Of a DNA stretch of 36,682 nucleotides, positions 4,636 to 10,060 are shown piece by piece. The position numbers were made by a program, and so were the translations under genes. The DNA lies in IMG/VR virus record IMGVR_UViG_2545824713_000010; one strand, 5' to 3'. The notes under the pieces were generated by a model that was not told the DNA's origin, ran no database searches, and was given only the letters and a program-made list of their open reading frames with translations. Source of the stretch: a virus (lineage: Duplodnaviria; Heunggongvirae; Uroviricota; Caudoviricetes). Every line of letters begins with the position of its first letter. Position 1 is the first letter of the stretch.

Positions 4636-5001
4636 ATGATTCTCGCCAACGACTTTCTTGAATACCTGCTCAACACAGAGCGTGATCTTGCCGTTCGCGT
4701 GCGTGAACGTTATGACATGTACCTGAAATCCCTGCCTGTACCGCAGCTCGCTGACGGAAAGATTGTTATTGATGGTCGCTACATGATTGACAGCCACGAG
4801 GGAAATTACAGGCTTTACCGCATTGAAGGTGGCACTCCGTCCGTTATTGGCATTTACCAGCGCCCATCCTCTGCAATCGTCGATGTGATTGCCGACAGCA
4901 TCCGCATCACACATCGCTATGCCGACACAGAAGACACCGTGCTGGAAATTCAGCGGCTGGCTGCCGTTTGCCGTGACACCCTGAACGGTATGACGCAGTA
5001 A
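4636..5001 (+). CDS. Hypothetical protein immediately upstream of A
   Basis: 121-aa ORF with RBS aagagg. Confidence 0.5.
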   Translation: MILANDFLEYLLNTERDLAVRVRERYDMYLKSLPVPQLADGKIVIDGRYMIDSHEGNYRLYRIEGGTPSVIGIYQRPSSAIVDVIADSIRITHRYADTEDTVLEIQRLAAVCRDTLNGMTQ

Positions 5002-5007
5002 ATCAGT

Positions 5008-7830
5008 ATGACGACAGAGTACATCAGGGACTGGCAACAACCGCGCCACGCAGTGGGGCGTGAAGGAACGGGGATCCCCGCACCTGAATCCGCGCTTTCC
5101 TCCTGGCTGGATGCCTACCGGGCAGAGAACGAGCGCCGACAGGAAAAGGCTGATGCGGCGTTCTCCGCCACGCCGCTGGGCAACCTGATTAATAAAAGCC
5201 TGGATGCACAGGAAAAACAGGACAAAACCATCACACTGGCAGGAGACGCCAGAAAGCAGGCACGCGGCGCGGTGGATGAAGCCATGGCCTCGCTGCGCCT
5301 GCTGCCGTCCTATCTGCGCGATCCGCTTATTCGCCACCTCTCCTTCCTGCGCAAAAAACAGGAATCTGACCGCCAGAAAGGTAAAAAGAACCAGCAGGCG
5401 GAACGCTATGCACGCGGAACCCTGCGCAAAATATTCGAACGTCTGGATCGCACTGACGGACGCTGGCTGACACCGGGTTATCGCTCCCTTGCCGGACGCG
5501 AACGCCTGGACGATTTGCTTTACCTGCCGCAGCTCAACAAACACCAGATACAGACGCTGGCCACCATGACGGCGGCGATGTTCAGCAGCACCTTCGAAAA
5601 ACTCTGCGATGGCTTTGGCGCGACCGATGGCGAACTGACCATGGATGTAACGCTGAAGACGTATCAGATGCTGGCCCGCATGGCGTTACACCTGCACATC
5701 ATGCCTCCACATTATGACGCACTGACAACAGATAAAGACCGGAGGAACGAACCGGACACGGAGCTGCTGCCGGGCGCAGTCCTTCGCCTGACCTGTGCGG
5801 AATGGTGGAAACGCAAACTGTGGCTGTTACGTTGCGAGTGGAGAGAAGAACAACTCCGCGCCGCCTGTCTGGTTTCCAGAAAAACATCGCCCTATCTGAG
5901 CCAGGACGCATTAAGCGAGTTTCGCGCACAGCGCGAGAAAACACGCGATTTCCTGAAAAGTTTCATGCTGGAAAATGAAGACGGGTTCACGATTGATCTC
6001 GAGACGGTGTATTACGCGGGAGTAAGTAACCCGGTTCACCGTAAGGCAGAAATGATGGCCACCATGAAGGGGCTGGAACTTCTGGCCGAAGCCCGTGGCG
6101 ACAGAGCGGTGTTTCTGACTGTCACCTGCCCGTCAAAATACCACGCAACAACGGAGAACGGTCATCCGAATCCCAAATGGAACGGGGCCACCATGCGCGA
6201 CTCCAGCGATTACCTGGTTAACACGTTTTTTGCGGCGGTCCGCAAAAAACTGAACCGCGACGGTCTTCGCTGGTATGGCATCCGCACGGTGGAGCCTCAC
6301 CATGACGGCACTGTGCACTGGCATATGATGGTCTTTGCACATCCGGACGAGATTGAAACCATCGTGTCCCACGTCTGCGATATTGCCATTCAGGAAGACC
6401 GCCACGAGCTGGGCGATGACATAACTCCGCGTTTTAAAGCGGAGTACGTCGACGGCTCAAAAGGCACGCCAACCAGCTACATCGCCACCTACATCGGAAA
6501 GAACCTGGACAGCCGCGCCGTGGATGGTATCGACCCGAAAACGGGCAAGCCACGCGTTGACCACGAAACCGGAAAATCAATGGCCGAGAGCGTGGAGCGC
6601 GCCATCGGCTGGGCGCGCCTTCACCGGGTCCGCCAGTTCCAGTTCTTTGGCATCCCCTCCCGTCAGGTGTGGCGTGAACTGCGCCGCCTTGCCAGCCAGA
6701 TGGCACGCAACCCGGAAGGCCCGCAACGGCTGAAGGATGACGCAATGGATGCAGTGCTCGCTGCCGCTGATGCCGGGTGTTTTGCCTCCTACATTGAAAA
6801 ACAGGGCGGCGTACTTGTTCCACGCAAAGACTACCTGATTCGCACCGCCTACGACCTCGCAGATGAGCTGAACGATTACGGCGAACAGAGCGTACAGATT
6901 TACGGGATCTGGTCACCACTCATCGGGGAGTCTTCCCGTGTGTGCACACATCCGGATAACTGGAAGCTGGTAAGACGTAAACCGGAAGCGGAAGACAGCG
7001 CCCGCGAAAATGGTTTTGACCTTCAGGGCGGTCCTGCCGCCCCTTGGACTCGTGGCAATAACTGTCCCCGTGTACAGGAAACAGGCAACAGCGGGACAGA
7101 ACAGTCGAAAGAACGGCCAGCACCGTGGCCGCAGCTTCCTGACGGCGTTGAAGTGAACGAATGGATGCGCTCACTGAAACGGCACGAACGCCGGGCGCTG
7201 ATGCGTTCGCTTCGTGACAAACAGGCAAAAAACAGCAGTGATGAAATGCAGAGCTGGACACAGAGCCGCAAACAGCAGCGGCCTTTGCCTGATAACCACG
7301 AATTACTCGCTAAAGAATGGCGGGAGTCTGCCGAATCTCTCGGCCTGCATATCGGTGAACAGCAGACGCAGCACCTGCTACGGGGCGGCAGCCTGTACGT
7401 TGACGGCAGCATCATTGCACCGCAGGGATATGAAATTGTACGCAAACCGGATACCCGCCCGGACAGCCGAATCACGCAGCTCTGGCAGCACCTGAGCCGT
7501 AATCACGGCGTAAGCAGCACGGAGATCCGCCATAACCCGGTCGCCAGCTATCTGGCACAGCTGGGGGCATCAGACCCCGAAGCCGCCGCACGCCTGGCAT
7601 CCGCACTTCAGCAGGATCAGAACACCATGAAAACACCCGTTACCGTGCTTTCTGACATGCTGCGCGCCATCCGCGACGCAGAGCACGCACAGAGAATCAG
7701 TGAAACCACTGAACGCGCCAGCCGCAAAGCAGACCTGCTGCAGGGTGGCCTGACCAGTGGAAACAAAAAACAGACAGAAACGGGACTCACGAATCCCGTA
7801 AATGAGCAAAAAACGCGCAGCGATATATGA
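5008..7830 (+). CDS. A: Replication initiation endonuclease, P2 gpA family (rolling-circle initiator), with a long C-terminal extension
   Basis: 940 aa; HUH-like motif TVHWHMMVFAHPDE and paired tyrosines in YIATYIGKN are typical of the gpA nickase; position matches P2 A. Confidence 0.85.
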   Translation: MTTEYIRDWQQPRHAVGREGTGIPAPESALSSWLDAYRAENERRQEKADAAFSATPLGNLINKSLDAQEKQDKTITLAGDARKQARGAVDEAMASLRLLPSYLRDPLIRHLSFLRKKQESDRQKGKKNQQAERYARGTLRKIFERLDRTDGRWLTPGYRSLAGRERLDDLLYLPQLNKHQIQTLATMTAAMFSSTFEKLCDGFGATDGELTMDVTLKTYQMLARMALHLHIMPPHYDALTTDKDRRNEPDTELLPGAVLRLTCAEWWKRKLWLLRCEWREEQLRAACLVSRKTSPYLSQDALSEFRAQREKTRDFLKSFMLENEDGFTIDLETVYYAGVSNPVHRKAEMMATMKGLELLAEARGDRAVFLTVTCPSKYHATTENGHPNPKWNGATMRDSSDYLVNTFFAAVRKKLNRDGLRWYGIRTVEPHHDGTVHWHMMVFAHPDEIETIVSHVCDIAIQEDRHELGDDITPRFKAEYVDGSKGTPTSYIATYIGKNLDSRAVDGIDPKTGKPRVDHETGKSMAESVERAIGWARLHRVRQFQFFGIPSRQVWRELRRLASQMARNPEGPQRLKDDAMDAVLAAADAGCFASYIEKQGGVLVPRKDYLIRTAYDLADELNDYGEQSVQIYGIWSPLIGESSRVCTHPDNWKLVRRKPEAEDSARENGFDLQGGPAAPWTRGNNCPRVQETGNSGTEQSKERPAPWPQLPDGVEVNEWMRSLKRHERRALMRSLRDKQAKNSSDEMQSWTQSRKQQRPLPDNHELLAKEWRESAESLGLHIGEQQTQHLLRGGSLYVDGSIIAPQGYEIVRKPDTRPDSRITQLWQHLSRNHGVSSTEIRHNPVASYLAQLGASDPEAAARLASALQQDQNTMKTPVTVLSDMLRAIRDAEHAQRISETTERASRKADLLQGGLTSGNKKQTETGLTNPVNEQKTRSDI

Positions 7831-7878
7831 AGCGCGCAAAAAACAGGCAAAAACGGGATTTCAGAATCCCGTAAACGA
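7765..7878. repeat. Two imperfect 41-bp direct repeats (7765..7805 and 7838..7878), each with an internal palindrome (acggga...tcccgt)
   Basis: Copy 1 encodes the last codons of A; copy 2 lies in the A-parM spacer with a perfect 8-bp inverted repeat acgggatt/aatcccgt. Confidence 0.6.
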
Positions 7879-7906: not shown

Positions 7907-8866
7907 ATGAAAATTTGTATCGACGACGGCTCCACCAACATCAAGCTGGCATGGACTGAGAACGGCGAACGCCGCAACGCCATCAGCCCGAACAGCTTCA
8001 AGTCGGAATGGTCTGCGCCGTTCGGTGGCACGCAGCCCGCGAACTACATGCTTGATGGCGTGCGCTATGGTTTTGATCCGGTCAGCGATCGCTTTGTCCA
8101 GACGACCGACACGCAATACCAGTACAGTGATGTGAATGTCATTGCCATTCATCACGCGCTGGTCAAATCAGGCATCACGCCACAGGAGGTGGATGTGGTT
8201 GTCACCCTGCCACTGAGCGAGTATTTCGACACAAACGCACAGCCGGACATAGCCAACATCAACCGCAAAAAAGCGAACGTTATGCGCCCGGTGGAGTACC
8301 AGAACGGCGAAGCATTCACTATCCGTAACGTGCGGGTTATGCCTGAATCCATTCCGGCTGGCTTTAAGGCACTGGCTGACATGAGTCCGTTTGAATCCCT
8401 GCTGATTGTGGATTTGGGCGGAACCACGCTGGATGTGGCAAAGGTTCAGGGGCAGCTGGCAGGTATCAGCCAGGTGTTTTGCGATCCACACGTAGGCGTT
8501 TCCCTGATGGCTGATGCCGTGCTGTCGGTGATGGCCACTAACGGTATGCGTACCAGTCACCACATCGCCAATACCATTATTGAGCACCGTCACGATGAAG
8601 CCTGGCTGCGCCAGCACATTCACAATGACGCGCATTACAACAGCCTGATGGCGGTTATTCGTGAAAAGGAGGAGACACTGAAACAACGAGTGATCCGCGC
8701 GCTGGCGGGTTTTTCCGGTTACGGGCGGGTGATGGTTGTCGGTGGAGGGGCGGAGATTGTGGCACCCGCTATCCGCGAAGCCTGCGGAGTTAATGCGACT
8801 TTCATCACGGACGGGGTGCCACATTTTGCTCTGGTTAATGGGCTGTACGCAATGAACAAGGAGTAA
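7907..8866 (+). CDS. parM: ParM/StbA-family actin-like ATPase
   Basis: 319 aa; N-terminus MKICIDDGSTNIKLAW closely matches plasmid R1 ParM/StbA as recalled (FIDDGSTNIKLQW), and YSDVNVIAIHHAL resembles the R1 WQYSDVNVVAVHHAL region; length equals ParM; RBS aagga. Confidence 0.8.
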   Translation: MKICIDDGSTNIKLAWTENGERRNAISPNSFKSEWSAPFGGTQPANYMLDGVRYGFDPVSDRFVQTTDTQYQYSDVNVIAIHHALVKSGITPQEVDVVVTLPLSEYFDTNAQPDIANINRKKANVMRPVEYQNGEAFTIRNVRVMPESIPAGFKALADMSPFESLLIVDLGGTTLDVAKVQGQLAGISQVFCDPHVGVSLMADAVLSVMATNGMRTSHHIANTIIEHRHDEAWLRQHIHNDAHYNSLMAVIREKEETLKQRVIRALAGFSGYGRVMVVGGGAEIVAPAIREACGVNATFITDGVPHFALVNGLYAMNKE

Positions 8867-8870
8867 ACCA

Positions 8871-9182
8871 ATGACGACACCAACCAGAAGAATAAGTTTC
8901 TATCTGAAGCCAGCTGCCGTCAAGAACGAAGGAGAAGCATGCGCCTGGCTGGACAGCCTTACACCAGAAGCCCGCAAAAGCGGCCAACGCGTGGCTTTTC
9001 TGGCCGGGCTGGCACTTCTGAAGACGAATCCGGCAGAGGCTTACCGACTGGCCGCATGGGCTGATGATGAGATGTTACCTGTGACACAAATCAGCTCAAA
9101 AAAGTTTGAAGCACAGTCTGCACCAGTGGCTAAGATAACCAGCCAGATGGCTGGGAATATCCGGGCGTTATTTCCTGAGTAA
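8871..9182 (+). CDS. parR: ParR-like ribbon-helix-helix adaptor
   Basis: 103 aa directly after parM. RISFYLKP and LDSLTPEARKSGQRVAFLAGLAL parallel R1 ParR (RTIAFKLNP, LDSIPQGERSRLNRAALTAGLAL) as recalled from memory. Confidence 0.55.
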   Translation: MTTPTRRISFYLKPAAVKNEGEACAWLDSLTPEARKSGQRVAFLAGLALLKTNPAEAYRLAAWADDEMLPVTQISSKKFEAQSAPVAKITSQMAGNIRALFPE

Positions 9183-9310
9183 AAGCATCTGCGCGAAAAA
9201 TGCTCACATTTATAGAAACAGTATCATTCCATTTGGCGCACTTACTTCAATAATCGATCTGTTAAACAAATAGATTGTCTATTATCTATCGATTAAAACG
9301 ATCAATTATC

Positions 9311-9338
9311 TTGACAGTAATGTGCCTTTTTGTAAGAT
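9311..9338 (+). promoter_or_regulatory. Sigma70-like promoter (TTGACA, 16-nt spacer, TAAGAT) preceded by a dyad aatagattgtctatt
   Basis: Near-consensus -35 and -10 hexamers read directly; dyad at 9270..9284 could be an operator. Confidence 0.4.
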
Positions 9339-9344
9339 CGTTCG

Positions 9345-9530
9345 CATTGTGAGCGACAAGATAATTGCGCGGCATTGTCCATGCAAAACGCCCCAATAGC
9401 AGCAACTATTGGGGCGTAGAACTCGGTCGGACTCACTTAACCTGATATGCGTGCCTTCCGAAGTAAATCAAAATGTGCGTCGTATATTTTATTGCTTACA
9501 CGCACCTCTGTAAAGGCACGCATATTTTTC
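9345..9530 (+). ncRNA. Candidate structured RNA or attenuator leader
   Basis: Perfect 12-bp stem acgccccaatag/ctattggggcgt (9388..9417); long-range 13-bp pairing atatgcgtgcctt (9445..9457) with aaggcacgcatat (9513..9525) followed by a T-run, immediately before the RBS of the 9547 ORF. Confidence 0.3.
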
Positions 9531-9546
9531 CTATGAGGTAAATAAA

Positions 9547-9816
9547 GTGCGGGCTAAAACAGGTATTTGCAAGAACCCTCATCGTTATAACCCAACATTT
9601 CTGTCTCTCCCTGAATATCAAGGACAAGAAGGTCGGCACAAATGCGCTGCCTGTGCTTTTGAGCTAGGCATAAAAGATGCGCTTGAAGGACGCGCTATGG
9701 CTCAGAATGATTTAGTTTTAGCTAACATTCCGTTTAGCCAGGCTGGAACTGTAAGGCACAGAGATGCTTATGAAGCATATGTTCGTGGTTGGCGATTAAT
9801 ACACAGCAACAATTGA
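9547..9816 (+). CDS. Hypothetical 89-aa protein with paired cysteines (CKNPH...CAACAF)
   Basis: GTG start with RBS tgaggt; followed by a strong terminator; function unknown. Confidence 0.5.
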   Translation: MRAKTGICKNPHRYNPTFLSLPEYQGQEGRHKCAACAFELGIKDALEGRAMAQNDLVLANIPFSQAGTVRHRDAYEAYVRGWRLIHSNN

Positions 9817-9823
9817 TATTTTT

Positions 9824-9849
9824 GAAGCGCCGATAAGGCGCTTTTTTTT
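9824..9849 (+). terminator. Rho-independent terminator (aagcgcc gata aggcgctt plus T8)
   Basis: GC stem and run of eight T immediately after the stop of the 9547..9816 ORF. Confidence 0.65.
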
Positions 9850-10060
9850 GTTTGCACGATAGTGCACAAGTTTGCACAATTTTTTTGAACGACTTTTTGT
9901 ACTTCCGGCCCGCGTGGCGGCTGGATCCGTCAAGGATCCGTACGTGCACAAAAAACGCGTTTTTTCTACGCGCAGGTGACGGGGGAACAGCCCGCGTTTC
10001 AGGGGGTAAATAGCATTCCCTGAACGATGTCGCAGAGATAGAACAGAATGGCTGTATTTC
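9850..10060. other. Probable cos / packaging region
   Basis: Non-coding stretch between the cargo slot and Q, where P2 cos lies; contains cgcgtggcgg reminiscent of P2/186 cohesive-end sequences (from memory), ggatccgt direct repeats and the palindrome aaaaaacgcgtttttt. Exact cos termini not determined. Confidence 0.3.

Follow-up and report, generated by a model that had tools for sequence, protein, structure and literature searches.

A mobile prophage cassette with a predicted cis-antisense RNA in its leader, encoding a small putative zinc protein related to restriction-modification loci

Introduction

Type I toxin-antitoxin loci such as tisB/istR-1, zorO/orzO and hok/sok are characterized by long leaders and upstream binding of an antisense RNA, and IS10 combines the Dam-sensitive promoter pIN with the antisense pair RNA-IN/RNA-OUT. 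Here we describe a locus which resembles both. It was found in the IMG/VR virus record IMGVR_UViG_2545824713_000010, a stretch of 36,682 nt (in the following, the window), which is a P88-like prophage of the P2 family (genus Xuanwuvirus). Positions 9241-9852 of the window are a mobile accessory cassette ("moron") with an open reading frame (ORF) of 89 aa. The long leader of this ORF in all likelihood encodes a cis-antisense small RNA (sRNA), as judged from sequence comparison, and the cassette would then probably consist of two convergently overlapping transcription units, sense and antisense.

Like type I loci, this is a small cassette on a mobile element with a long structured 5' untranslated region (5'-UTR), a partly masked Shine-Dalgarno sequence (SD) and a short antisense RNA predicted to pair well upstream of the start codon. 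Unlike in type I loci, the product is a soluble putative zinc protein of 89 aa with homologues in restriction-modification (R-M) loci and not a small membrane peptide, and the antisense RNA would be strictly cis-encoded inside the leader. As in IS10, GATC is located at or next to the promoter core and a predicted cis-antisense RNA is directed against the 5' part of the mRNA, an arrangement which would result in very low, possibly replication-coupled expression. However, the gene does not encode a transposase, the antisense RNA does not lie over the start codon, and the antisense promoter of the window is without GATC. The sar RNA acting on ant of P22 (Rfam RF00262) is also an antisense sRNA of a temperate phage which restrains a lysogen-silent gene, and one variant of our control module gates an antirepressor-like Bro-N gene. 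The similarity to sar, however, is confined to the hairpin (22 bits, threshold 43), and locus and target region are different.

In P2-like phages the region between gpA and gpQ is a variable hotspot for accessory and anti-phage genes, and a partition system is present there in about a quarter of the phages (Rousset et al. 2022, PMC9122126). The cassette is located in this gpA–gpQ, cos-proximal hotspot, in the same slot as the P2 cargo genes old and tin and alongside a partition system, but unlike such cargo it is not described in Rousset et al. 2022, the pipeline of which dropped arrangements made solely of proteins <120 aa (PMC9122126). At the protein level, RAMA, HARE-HTH and the DpnI-type winged helix are predicted adenine-methylation readers linked to R-M (Iyer et al. 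2016, PMC4738411). Similarly to them, the family of the 89-aa protein is a small domain which adjoins Dam-class methyltransferases and restriction endonucleases and also occurs in fusions with nuclease domains. In contrast to them, it does not match their Pfam families, its zinc-containing two-repeat fold is predicted to be without structural neighbour, and DNA binding is putative. Thus the circuit would work like a type I toxin-antitoxin locus or IS10-type antisense control, and it appears to belong to no described RNA or protein family; a literature search retrieved no description of the sRNA or of the protein family.

Results and discussion

A conserved promoter and covarying stem-loops on the minus strand of the leader

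The upstream regions of homologous ORFs fall into four related sequence groups and a fifth, unrelated one from Klebsiella, Citrobacter and Serratia (group B), and leaders in relatives are 167-208 nt long. On the strand opposite to the ORF, all 55 distinct leaders of the four groups carry the motif TTTAC(A/T)-17-TAnnnT (for the promoter and all other features of the window see Table 1). Its -35 element is the reverse complement of the sense-strand motif TGTAAAG, which precedes the start codon by 25-45 nt in all groups. The -10 element varies (TAAAAT, TACGAT, TAATCT, TACTCT, TAGACT, TAGAAT and others), and only T1, A2 and T6 are kept. Since this is the pattern expected of a real -10 element, it supports the existence of a minus-strand promoter. 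The group B leaders, the sequence of which is unrelated, have the same layout, with TTTACA-17-CACAAT and an upstream TG. There, a structured minus-strand RNA of approximately 95 nt is predicted, with a final hairpin followed by U6-7, which corresponds to a canonical terminator.

The sRNA predicted for the window is fully complementary to the middle part of the leader and does not overlap the SD; its folding energy is -35.8 kcal/mol (z = -3.1). It ends at a perfect hairpin of 12 bp, which was also seen in an earlier reading made from the sequence alone (hereafter the sequence-only reading), and this stem-loop at 9388-9417 is probably the terminator of the sRNA. Homologous sRNAs in relatives comprise 72-82 nt and two covarying stem-loops. 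The covariance model R1, which was built on a seed of eight predicted antisense RNAs and comprises a 5' tail, stem-loop 1, a U-rich linker and stem-loop 2, matches only the strand opposite to the ORF, and only in leaders, including those from Gilliamella and Providencia and of the L004 type, which were not in the seed. In the corresponding alignment (A7), double compensatory changes were found at 17 of 21 pairs and 96.5% of the cells are paired, a percentage which is inflated because A7 was fitted to the R1 structure; the asymmetry between G·U and A·C is much less affected by this. None of 500 shuffled controls reached any of the observed covariation measures, and in slid registers 41-57% of the cells were paired.

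The strand is revealed by this asymmetry. Read on the minus strand, the two stem-loops contain 74 G·U cells and 2 A·C cells. The 74 G·U cells would be mismatches on the strand of the ORF, and thus the helices are good on the minus strand only. In the helix of the 12-bp hairpin, double compensatory changes were detected at 10 of 12 pairs, and here, too, the G·U pairs are on the minus strand. The sequence-only reading had regarded this hairpin as an element of the sense leader; covariation, the strand bias of G·U pairs and the conserved promoter together place it on the minus strand.

No match at threshold was obtained with Rfam 15 for the cassette region. The best scores were those of ctRNA_pGA1 (22.1 bits, threshold 45) and of the sar family mentioned above; both are minus-strand similarities to antisense RNAs and comprise the hairpin only. 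At ten related loci, a search with the Rfam gathering thresholds yielded tRNAs only. When the antisense RNAs were aligned across the groups with plain MAFFT, the result was inconsistent with the structure, and RNAalifold found almost nothing in this alignment. In summary, the leader is structured, as noticed from the sequence alone, its strongly covarying helices belong to the minus strand, and a match to an Rfam family was not found. Control of the ORF at the level of RNA, as supposed in the sequence-only reading, is very likely.

We also observed that between close relatives the 6-nt loop of the hairpin can be reverse-complemented with the stem unchanged (L128 and L130, L147 and L145, L161 and L158). 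The inverted pairs are cggcaa and ttgccg, or cgtcaa and ttgacg. This suggests repeated loop inversion, which could result from template switching at the palindrome.

Proposed interaction of the antisense RNA with the leader

On the sense strand, group-wise RNAalifold analysis predicted a 5'-terminal stem and a long-range helix in all groups. The sequence of the long-range helix is wholly different from group to group: in addition to the window, it is formed by GAGGTGTCATC and GATGAACACCTC in L004, by GGTTTTACATGTGATCACC and GGTGATCTGTGTAAAGCC in Providencia, and by yet other arms in Gilliamella. Its 3' arm includes the (U)GUAAAG motif, and its loop encloses the -10 element and the start site of the antisense transcript, so that the sRNA covers the 5' arm only.

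We blocked the region covered by the sRNA in silico and compared the predicted unpaired probabilities with those of the free leader. In most representatives, blocking lowered the accessibility of the SD or of the translation-initiation region. For the SD, the values (free, then blocked) were 0.45 and 0.24 in L004, 0.22 and 0.07 in L133, and 0.54 and 0.30 in L145. For the window type, the value of the initiation region decreased from 0.56 to 0.43, and that of the SD, a mean of 0.43 in the free leader, was unchanged at 0.42. These folding models give weak support to repression by leader refolding upon sRNA binding.

We propose the following mechanism. A sigma-70 promoter bearing GATC sites would drive an mRNA with a structured leader of approximately 200 nt, the 89-aa gene and a terminator. 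From a minus-strand promoter inside this leader, a cis-antisense sRNA of approximately 100 nt would be transcribed, ending at the perfect hairpin. The sRNA would pair with the middle part of the leader, to which the 5' arm of the long-range helix belongs, and pairing may lower translation or mRNA stability, so that the protein would be off in the lysogen. For the prophage, the protein would then serve as a regulator or exclusion factor under tight control.

The architecture would also be compatible with a toxin-antitoxin module of type I or with abortive infection. In this case the protein would be harmful, for example by coating or blocking GATC-containing DNA, and the sRNA would be the labile antitoxin; shut-off of transcription induced by a phage, or loss of the prophage, would free the translation of a stable, structured mRNA. 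As in type I loci with long processed leaders, the cis-antisense RNA is predicted 55-75 nt upstream of a partly masked SD, and comparison (promoter, covarying stem-loops, terminator in group B) argues for an antisense RNA overlapping the mRNA. Further, the cassette is found in known anti-phage hotspots, namely P2 gpA–gpQ (PMC9122126) and the position after cI, and the product of the Bro-N variant is another one to be kept off in the lysogen. However, a type I toxin is typically a hydrophobic peptide of <60 aa, and here a protein of 89 aa with a soluble, helical model is encoded. Moreover, the family genes inside R-M operons show no antisense partner, so that intrinsic toxicity is not implied, and there were no PADLOC hits. 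We consider a toxin possible, although rather unlikely, and return to an antisense-gated gene for an R-M-related protein as the preferred explanation.

GATC sites at the promoters

The cassette contains three GATC sites, at 9256, 9300 and 9336. GATC 9300-9303 lies 7 nt upstream of the -35 element, and GATC 9336-9339 overlaps the 3' end of the -10 element. In 54 of 55 distinct leaders a GATC precedes the end of the -10 element by 39+/-1 nt (38-40), which corresponds to 7 nt upstream of the -35 element; the single outlier is L156, the -35 element of which is poorly predicted. This fixed GATC is embedded in the motif TAAGCTGATCtttttATTGAAG, and the positions are kept in all four leader groups. 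A second GATC is located between -3 and +24 in most leaders and is missing in several, for example in L144, L158-L160, L164 and part of the Providencia group. In most groups GATC, often as GAGATCTC, is also present at the antisense promoter or start. In the whole window, GATC is under-represented (86 sites observed, approximately 142 expected from base composition).

As in pIN of IS10, GATC (9300, 9336) thus occurs within or adjacent to core promoter elements. The fixed positions suggest Dam- or SeqA-sensitive promoters as in IS10, and the methylation state of the promoter GATCs would modulate expression. Autoregulation of the protein via GATC operators was considered and rejected: upstream of the family genes linked to R-M there is no clustering of GATC (0.54 per 200 nt, compared with 0.33 locus-wide), so that a link between the promoter GATCs and the specificity of the protein is hypothetical. 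In a six-frame scan of the window for the catalytic motif [DNS]PP[YFW], which is a motif check and not a homology search, all ORFs containing the motif comprise 16-81 aa, which is too small for a methyltransferase.

The 89-aa protein and its relatives in restriction-modification loci

The ORF is real. Its product matches PHROG 3941 (function unknown) with E = 6.3e-49 (residues 4-89 on profile positions 1-86 of 86), and searches of Pfam, NCBIfam and PDB with sequence profiles gave no match. In PADLOC-DB 2.0, no family was found at E <= 10. An exhaustive HMMER search resulted in 172 family representatives at 50% identity and a profile search in 1583 clusters at 90% identity; among the 120 clusters listed, there is no name apart from "hypothetical protein" and no Pfam domain. 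Hosts of the family are Proteobacteria, Clostridia, Bacteroidota, Spirochaetes, Myxococcota, Actinobacteria and Chloroflexi. The protein is also modelled confidently by AlphaFold2 (predicted local distance difference test, 91.6), so that both homology search and structure prediction speak for a genuine coding sequence.

The sequence-only reading had described the protein as Cys-rich with paired cysteines. The cysteines are present, but "Cys-rich" was overstated, since there are only three (C8, C33 and C36). Together with H12 they form a probable CHCC zinc site. Invariant residues in the family are C8, H12, R30, Q65 and R70, and near-invariant ones Q25, H31, C33, C36, S64 and H71. We detected an internal repeat, in which residues 17-47 align with residues 57-87 (hhalign 98.7%, E = 2e-16). 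With this tandem duplication of a unit of approximately 31 aa (LPxxQGGxGRHKCxxCAYxxG), the protein is pseudo-symmetric, and the zinc ligands are kept in the first repeat only. According to the model, the protein is largely helical and soluble and has a zinc site. Its predicted fold is novel: it is unlike solved structures and has no structural neighbour.

To analyse the genomic neighbourhood, we clustered 84 loci (80 species genomes, three phage or prophage records and the window). Within 4 kb, a Dam-class (D12) methyltransferase gene was found at 37, a DpnII endonuclease gene at 29 and an N6_N4 methyltransferase gene at 34 of the 84 loci, and about 40% of the homologues in other genomes adjoin Dam-class methyltransferase or DpnII genes. 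In Clostridia, where the gene order is Dam–family–DpnII–M2, the family gene is directly upstream of the DpnII gene with gaps of 0-20 nt. Bacteroidales and Endomicrobia have the order Dam–DpnII–M2–family, and the family gene of Treponema is either convergent with the R-M operon or inserted into it. There is also an operon consisting of Dam, DUF6996/6997/7226 and the family gene. Moreover, there are fusions of the domain, or of two copies of its first repeat, to NOV_C, which we take to be a nuclease-fold domain, to DndB and to a BrxR-type WYL regulator.

Some neighbours deserve mention. In L165-L169, which are metagenome contigs, the gene of the small zinc protein is grouped with those of a Dam-class methyltransferase and of a 425-aa DUF6996/DUF6997/DUF7226 protein; some of these contigs lack the methyltransferase and have a shortened DUF protein. 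This three-gene unit may be an uncharacterised GATC-linked restriction system. Elsewhere, the family gene lies beside genes for a 331-aa protein with the N-terminus MDKRYQVFVSSTF... that resembles DUF4062 by eye (L030, 4308-5303), a 587-aa uncharacterised protein (L017, 3123-4886) and a 1031-aa protein the sequence of which looks like a DNA methylase (L075, 4300-7395).

Based on these associations, the protein is most likely a small DNA- or enzyme-binding module tied to GATC or to its adenine-methylation state. A more specific role would be that of an orphan R-M controller, i.e. an analogue without helix-turn-helix (HTH) of the C proteins, which time DpnII-type endonucleases; the phage copy would then act on phage or host promoters or interfere with incoming GATC R-M systems. 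The position next to or upstream of the endonuclease gene, which is close in Clostridia and variable in orientation elsewhere, as for C genes, is compatible with such a role and was found for homologues in Clostridia, Bacteroidales and Treponema, but not for the copy in the window. However, the protein has neither the Xre-type HTH fold of controllers nor any Pfam match, and its fold appears to be novel; no conserved operator or GATC cluster is located upstream of the R-M-linked copies; and the fusions to nuclease, DndB and BrxR are more in keeping with a module for sensing or recognition than with a dedicated transcription factor. A controller function is therefore unlikely in our opinion.

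It is tempting to speculate that the protein founds a new two-repeat zinc domain which reads GATC or its adenine-methylation state. R-M systems of the DpnII/Dam type would use this domain standalone or fused to nucleases, DndB or BrxR, and temperate phages of Dam+ bacteria would have captured it as an antisense-gated, Dam-sensitive switch, with which a prophage excludes or senses under-methylated (replicating or foreign) DNA. We give this extension of the methylation-linked module, too, a low probability.

The whole picture, an antisense-gated sense unit with an R-M-related zinc protein in its inferred role, seems to us reasonably probable. Comparison between relatives argues for the antisense promoter, for the two stem-loops of the sRNA and their strand, for the fixed GATC positions and for the portability of the unit. 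Several points weigh against the picture, in addition to the fitted alignment mentioned above. The ends of the sense and antisense transcripts are all deduced from sequence features. The U-tract behind the sRNA hairpin is short in the main groups and interrupted by C (UUUCC; in the window UUUGC), and thus termination is not assured. The body of the sRNA of the window is unlike the modelled type; it has no R1 match and shares with it only the promoter and the 3' hairpin. Modelled binding of the sRNA cuts the accessibility of the SD modestly, and not at all in the window. As to the protein, its function is assigned by association with neighbouring genes, and the net charge in the family is near neutral (median +1, range -6 to +10), which is atypical for DNA binders. 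Because of this charge and of the missing GATC clusters upstream of the R-M-linked copies, a role as methylation-linked module is an inference. Finally, the promoter GATCs may belong to the control module and be uninformative about the target of the protein, since the R-M-linked copies are without GATC clusters and one module carries other cargo.

The sense strand of the leader

The leader of the window folds very stably on the sense strand (9345-9565, -71.4 kcal/mol, z = -4.27; none of 200 shuffled sequences was as stable). The 13-bp long-range stem and the T-run before the ribosome-binding site, which the sequence-only reading interpreted as an attenuator or sRNA-like element, are present. 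A purely cis-acting sense element (attenuator, thermosensor or riboswitch-like), with no antisense RNA involved, would explain the stability, this T-run, and the conservation of the 5' stem and of the long-range helix, which in the Providencia and Gilliamella leaders also contain G·U pairs on the sense strand. However, a U-run behind the helix is found only in the window and L004 types, and the other leader groups keep the helix without it. The T-run is thus not a conserved feature, which leaves a sense-strand attenuator without support; a conserved sense-strand terminator between promoter and ORF was not found, and no Rfam family matches. The compact 12-bp hairpin is without U-run on the sense strand and carries G·U pairs of the minus strand. 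Above all, a sense element alone contradicts the strand bias of the two best-covarying helices (74 G·U cells if read on the minus strand, and 2 if read on the sense strand), and it leaves unexplained the minus-strand promoter in 55 of 55 leaders and in group B as well as the minus-strand terminator in group B. We consider it improbable. Sense structure and antisense RNA are compatible with each other, and only the assumption that there is no antisense RNA is disfavoured.

Mobility of the cassette

All elements listed in the sequence-only reading were found where it had placed them, including the dyad upstream of the near-consensus sigma-70 promoter and the terminator behind the ORF, which is followed by the cos region; with its own promoter and terminator the cassette is self-contained, as had been proposed. 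The match of the sense promoter to the consensus is by itself at chance level (2 promoter-like sites, 1.8 expected from shuffles), and therefore support for this promoter comes from its conservation: an equivalent promoter at the same distance from the hairpin is present in all four leader groups. Transcription would start near 9345. In the window, the spacing between SD and start codon is the same as in GAGGTAAATCAAATATG of L004, and directly 3' of the ORF every relative has its own terminator. A perfect inverted repeat of 11 bp, CAATTATCTTG (9303-9313) and CAAGATAATTG (9357-9367), flanks the sense promoter from the -35 element to approximately +20. It is specific to the window variant, is not present in L004, and could be an operator pair or a structure of the 5' end.

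The sequence-only reading left open whether the cassette is a part of the parMR module or an independent cargo gene. Our data speak for independent cargo and against membership in parMR, since the unit recurs in at least four further contexts, in prophages that lack parMR. At several places, homologous ORFs each have a promoter and a terminator of their own and a leader of 170-210 nt. In the P22-like Salmonella phage BIS08P22, the cassette lies directly downstream of cI, between cI and the N antiterminator gene, and related loci are alike. Providencia phage PSTCR7lys has it in opposite orientation between Q and the lysis genes. Prophages of Gilliamella, Proteus, Yersinia, Rahnella and Enterobacter have it beside cI-like, UmuD-like, tail-fibre or capsid genes, and the architecture is also found without parMR in Klebsiella and Citrobacter. 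A second, diverged P2-like prophage (L004 type) has the cassette after parMR, with an ORF that is not annotated by the PGAP pipeline. The sequence from parR to the cassette differs between the two P2-like variants, and homology starts at approximately 9241 and not at parR, which argues for independent cargo. That the cassette is a functional part of parMR (a downstream centromere or a ParR-regulated accessory gene) is extremely improbable, because its position directly after parM-parR in 40 of 40 P2-like loci recovered and a dyad (9250-9309) that could pass for a centromere-like site are outweighed by the same architecture without parMR in the P22-like, Providencia, Gilliamella and Klebsiella/Citrobacter contexts, by the different parR–cassette spacers, and by parC-candidate repeats upstream of parM; the cassette is not dependent on parMR.

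In L004, a G8...C9 palindrome (ggggggggtgacatcaccccccccc) is located between parR and the cassette (4880-4915), and an extra ORF of 95 aa and an Ogr/Delta zinc-finger gene lie between the cassette and the portal gene (5622-6479).

The control module itself is also exchangeable. Viral contigs were scanned with a 19-nt leader pattern, which was specific and detected 24 genuine G0-type modules (one further hit, L290, was a chance match); a 14-nt pattern gave mostly chance matches in such contigs. The cargo belongs to the protein family described here in 23 of the 24 modules and is a Bro-N gene in the remaining one. In this locus (L219, 2300-3285), downstream of a cI-like S24 repressor gene, the same promoter, leader and antisense gene precede a gene for an antirepressor-like Bro-N protein of 242 aa, and the cargo junction is located just before the SD. 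The RNA unit is therefore a portable, reusable platform for tight control.

Genomic setting and feature coordinates

The order of genes in the window is replication protein, parM, parR, cassette, cos region, and portal and terminase genes (Table 1). Positions 9183-9900 are 98.7% identical to Escherichia phage 520873. At >=80% coverage the cassette is present in 166 of 5426 complete E. coli genomes (approximately 3%), and all sites except one are chromosomal. Four of six full-length hits inspected in RefSeq E. coli genomes (100% coverage; H12, H13, H15-H17 group) are without any feature under the cassette, although the 89-aa ORF itself is conserved there; two hits (H14, and H2 in the phage set) are annotated as "hypothetical protein" at the cassette, and in some NCBI records the ORF is annotated in a shortened form of 64-83 aa. 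A 26-nt unit with an internal ACGGGA...TCCCGT dyad occurs twice just upstream of parM, overlapping the end of the replication gene (ACGGGACTCACGAATCCCGTAAATGA, 7780-7805; ACGGGATTTCAGAATCCCGTAAACGA, 7853-7878). These units are plausible candidates for parC/ParR operator sites.

Table 1. Features of the cassette and its surroundings in the window.
Feature	Position	Strand	Sequence or remark
Replication protein, 940 aa	5008-7830		named "replication endonuclease" in a related prophage
parM	7907-8866		Pfam StbA_N, E = 3.5e-82
parR	8871-9182		Pfam Plasmid_stab_B, E = 9.8e-24
Left end of cassette	9241..9310		homology with E. coli ECL27829 locus begins at ~9241
Imperfect dyad	9250-9275 and 9284-9309 (arms)		73% complementary
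GATC sites	9256-9259, 9300-9303, 9336-9339
Sense sigma-70 promoter	9311-9316 and 9333-9338	+	TTGACA, 16 nt, TAAGAT; 10/12 matches
Sense 5'-UTR, ~200 nt	9345..9546	+	highly structured
Predicted cis-antisense sRNA, ~100 nt	~9479→9381	minus	ends placed by promoter and hairpin
Antisense promoter (predicted)	9514-9509 and 9491-9486	minus	TTTACA, 17 nt, TAAAAT; 10/12 matches
3' stem-loop of predicted sRNA, perfect 12 bp, 6-nt loop	9388-9399 with 9406-9417	minus	ACGCCCCAATAG with CTATTGGGGCGT, then UUUGCAUGG
Long-range helix, perfect 13 bp	9445-9457 with 9513-9525	+	ATATGCGTGCCTT with AAGGCACGCATAT, then TTTTT 9526-9530
SD	9536-9539	+	GAGG
Start codon	9547-9549	+	GTG
ORF, 89 aa	9547-9816	+
Intrinsic terminator and right end of cassette	9824-9852 (hairpin 9824-9844, then T-run)	+	8-bp stem, 5 G-C pairs
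Portal and terminase genes	beyond cos region	minus	names from homologous genes annotated in phage 520873

Significance

The identification of this cassette is important for several reasons. At the RNA level, it would represent an undescribed family of cis-antisense sRNAs with two leader types, which travels together with its target gene among P2-like, P22-like and other prophages of enterobacteria and Orbaceae. The module of promoter, leader and antisense gene is reusable, as one variant drives the unrelated Bro-N gene. At the protein level, the cassette is an entry point to an unnamed family with 1583 clusters in many phyla, which is genetically tied to GATC-specific R-M. If the link to GATC is true, the protein would be a new type of accessory factor or reader for an epigenetic mark which is among the best studied in bacteria, and prophages would borrow a component of R-M systems and keep it under RNA control.

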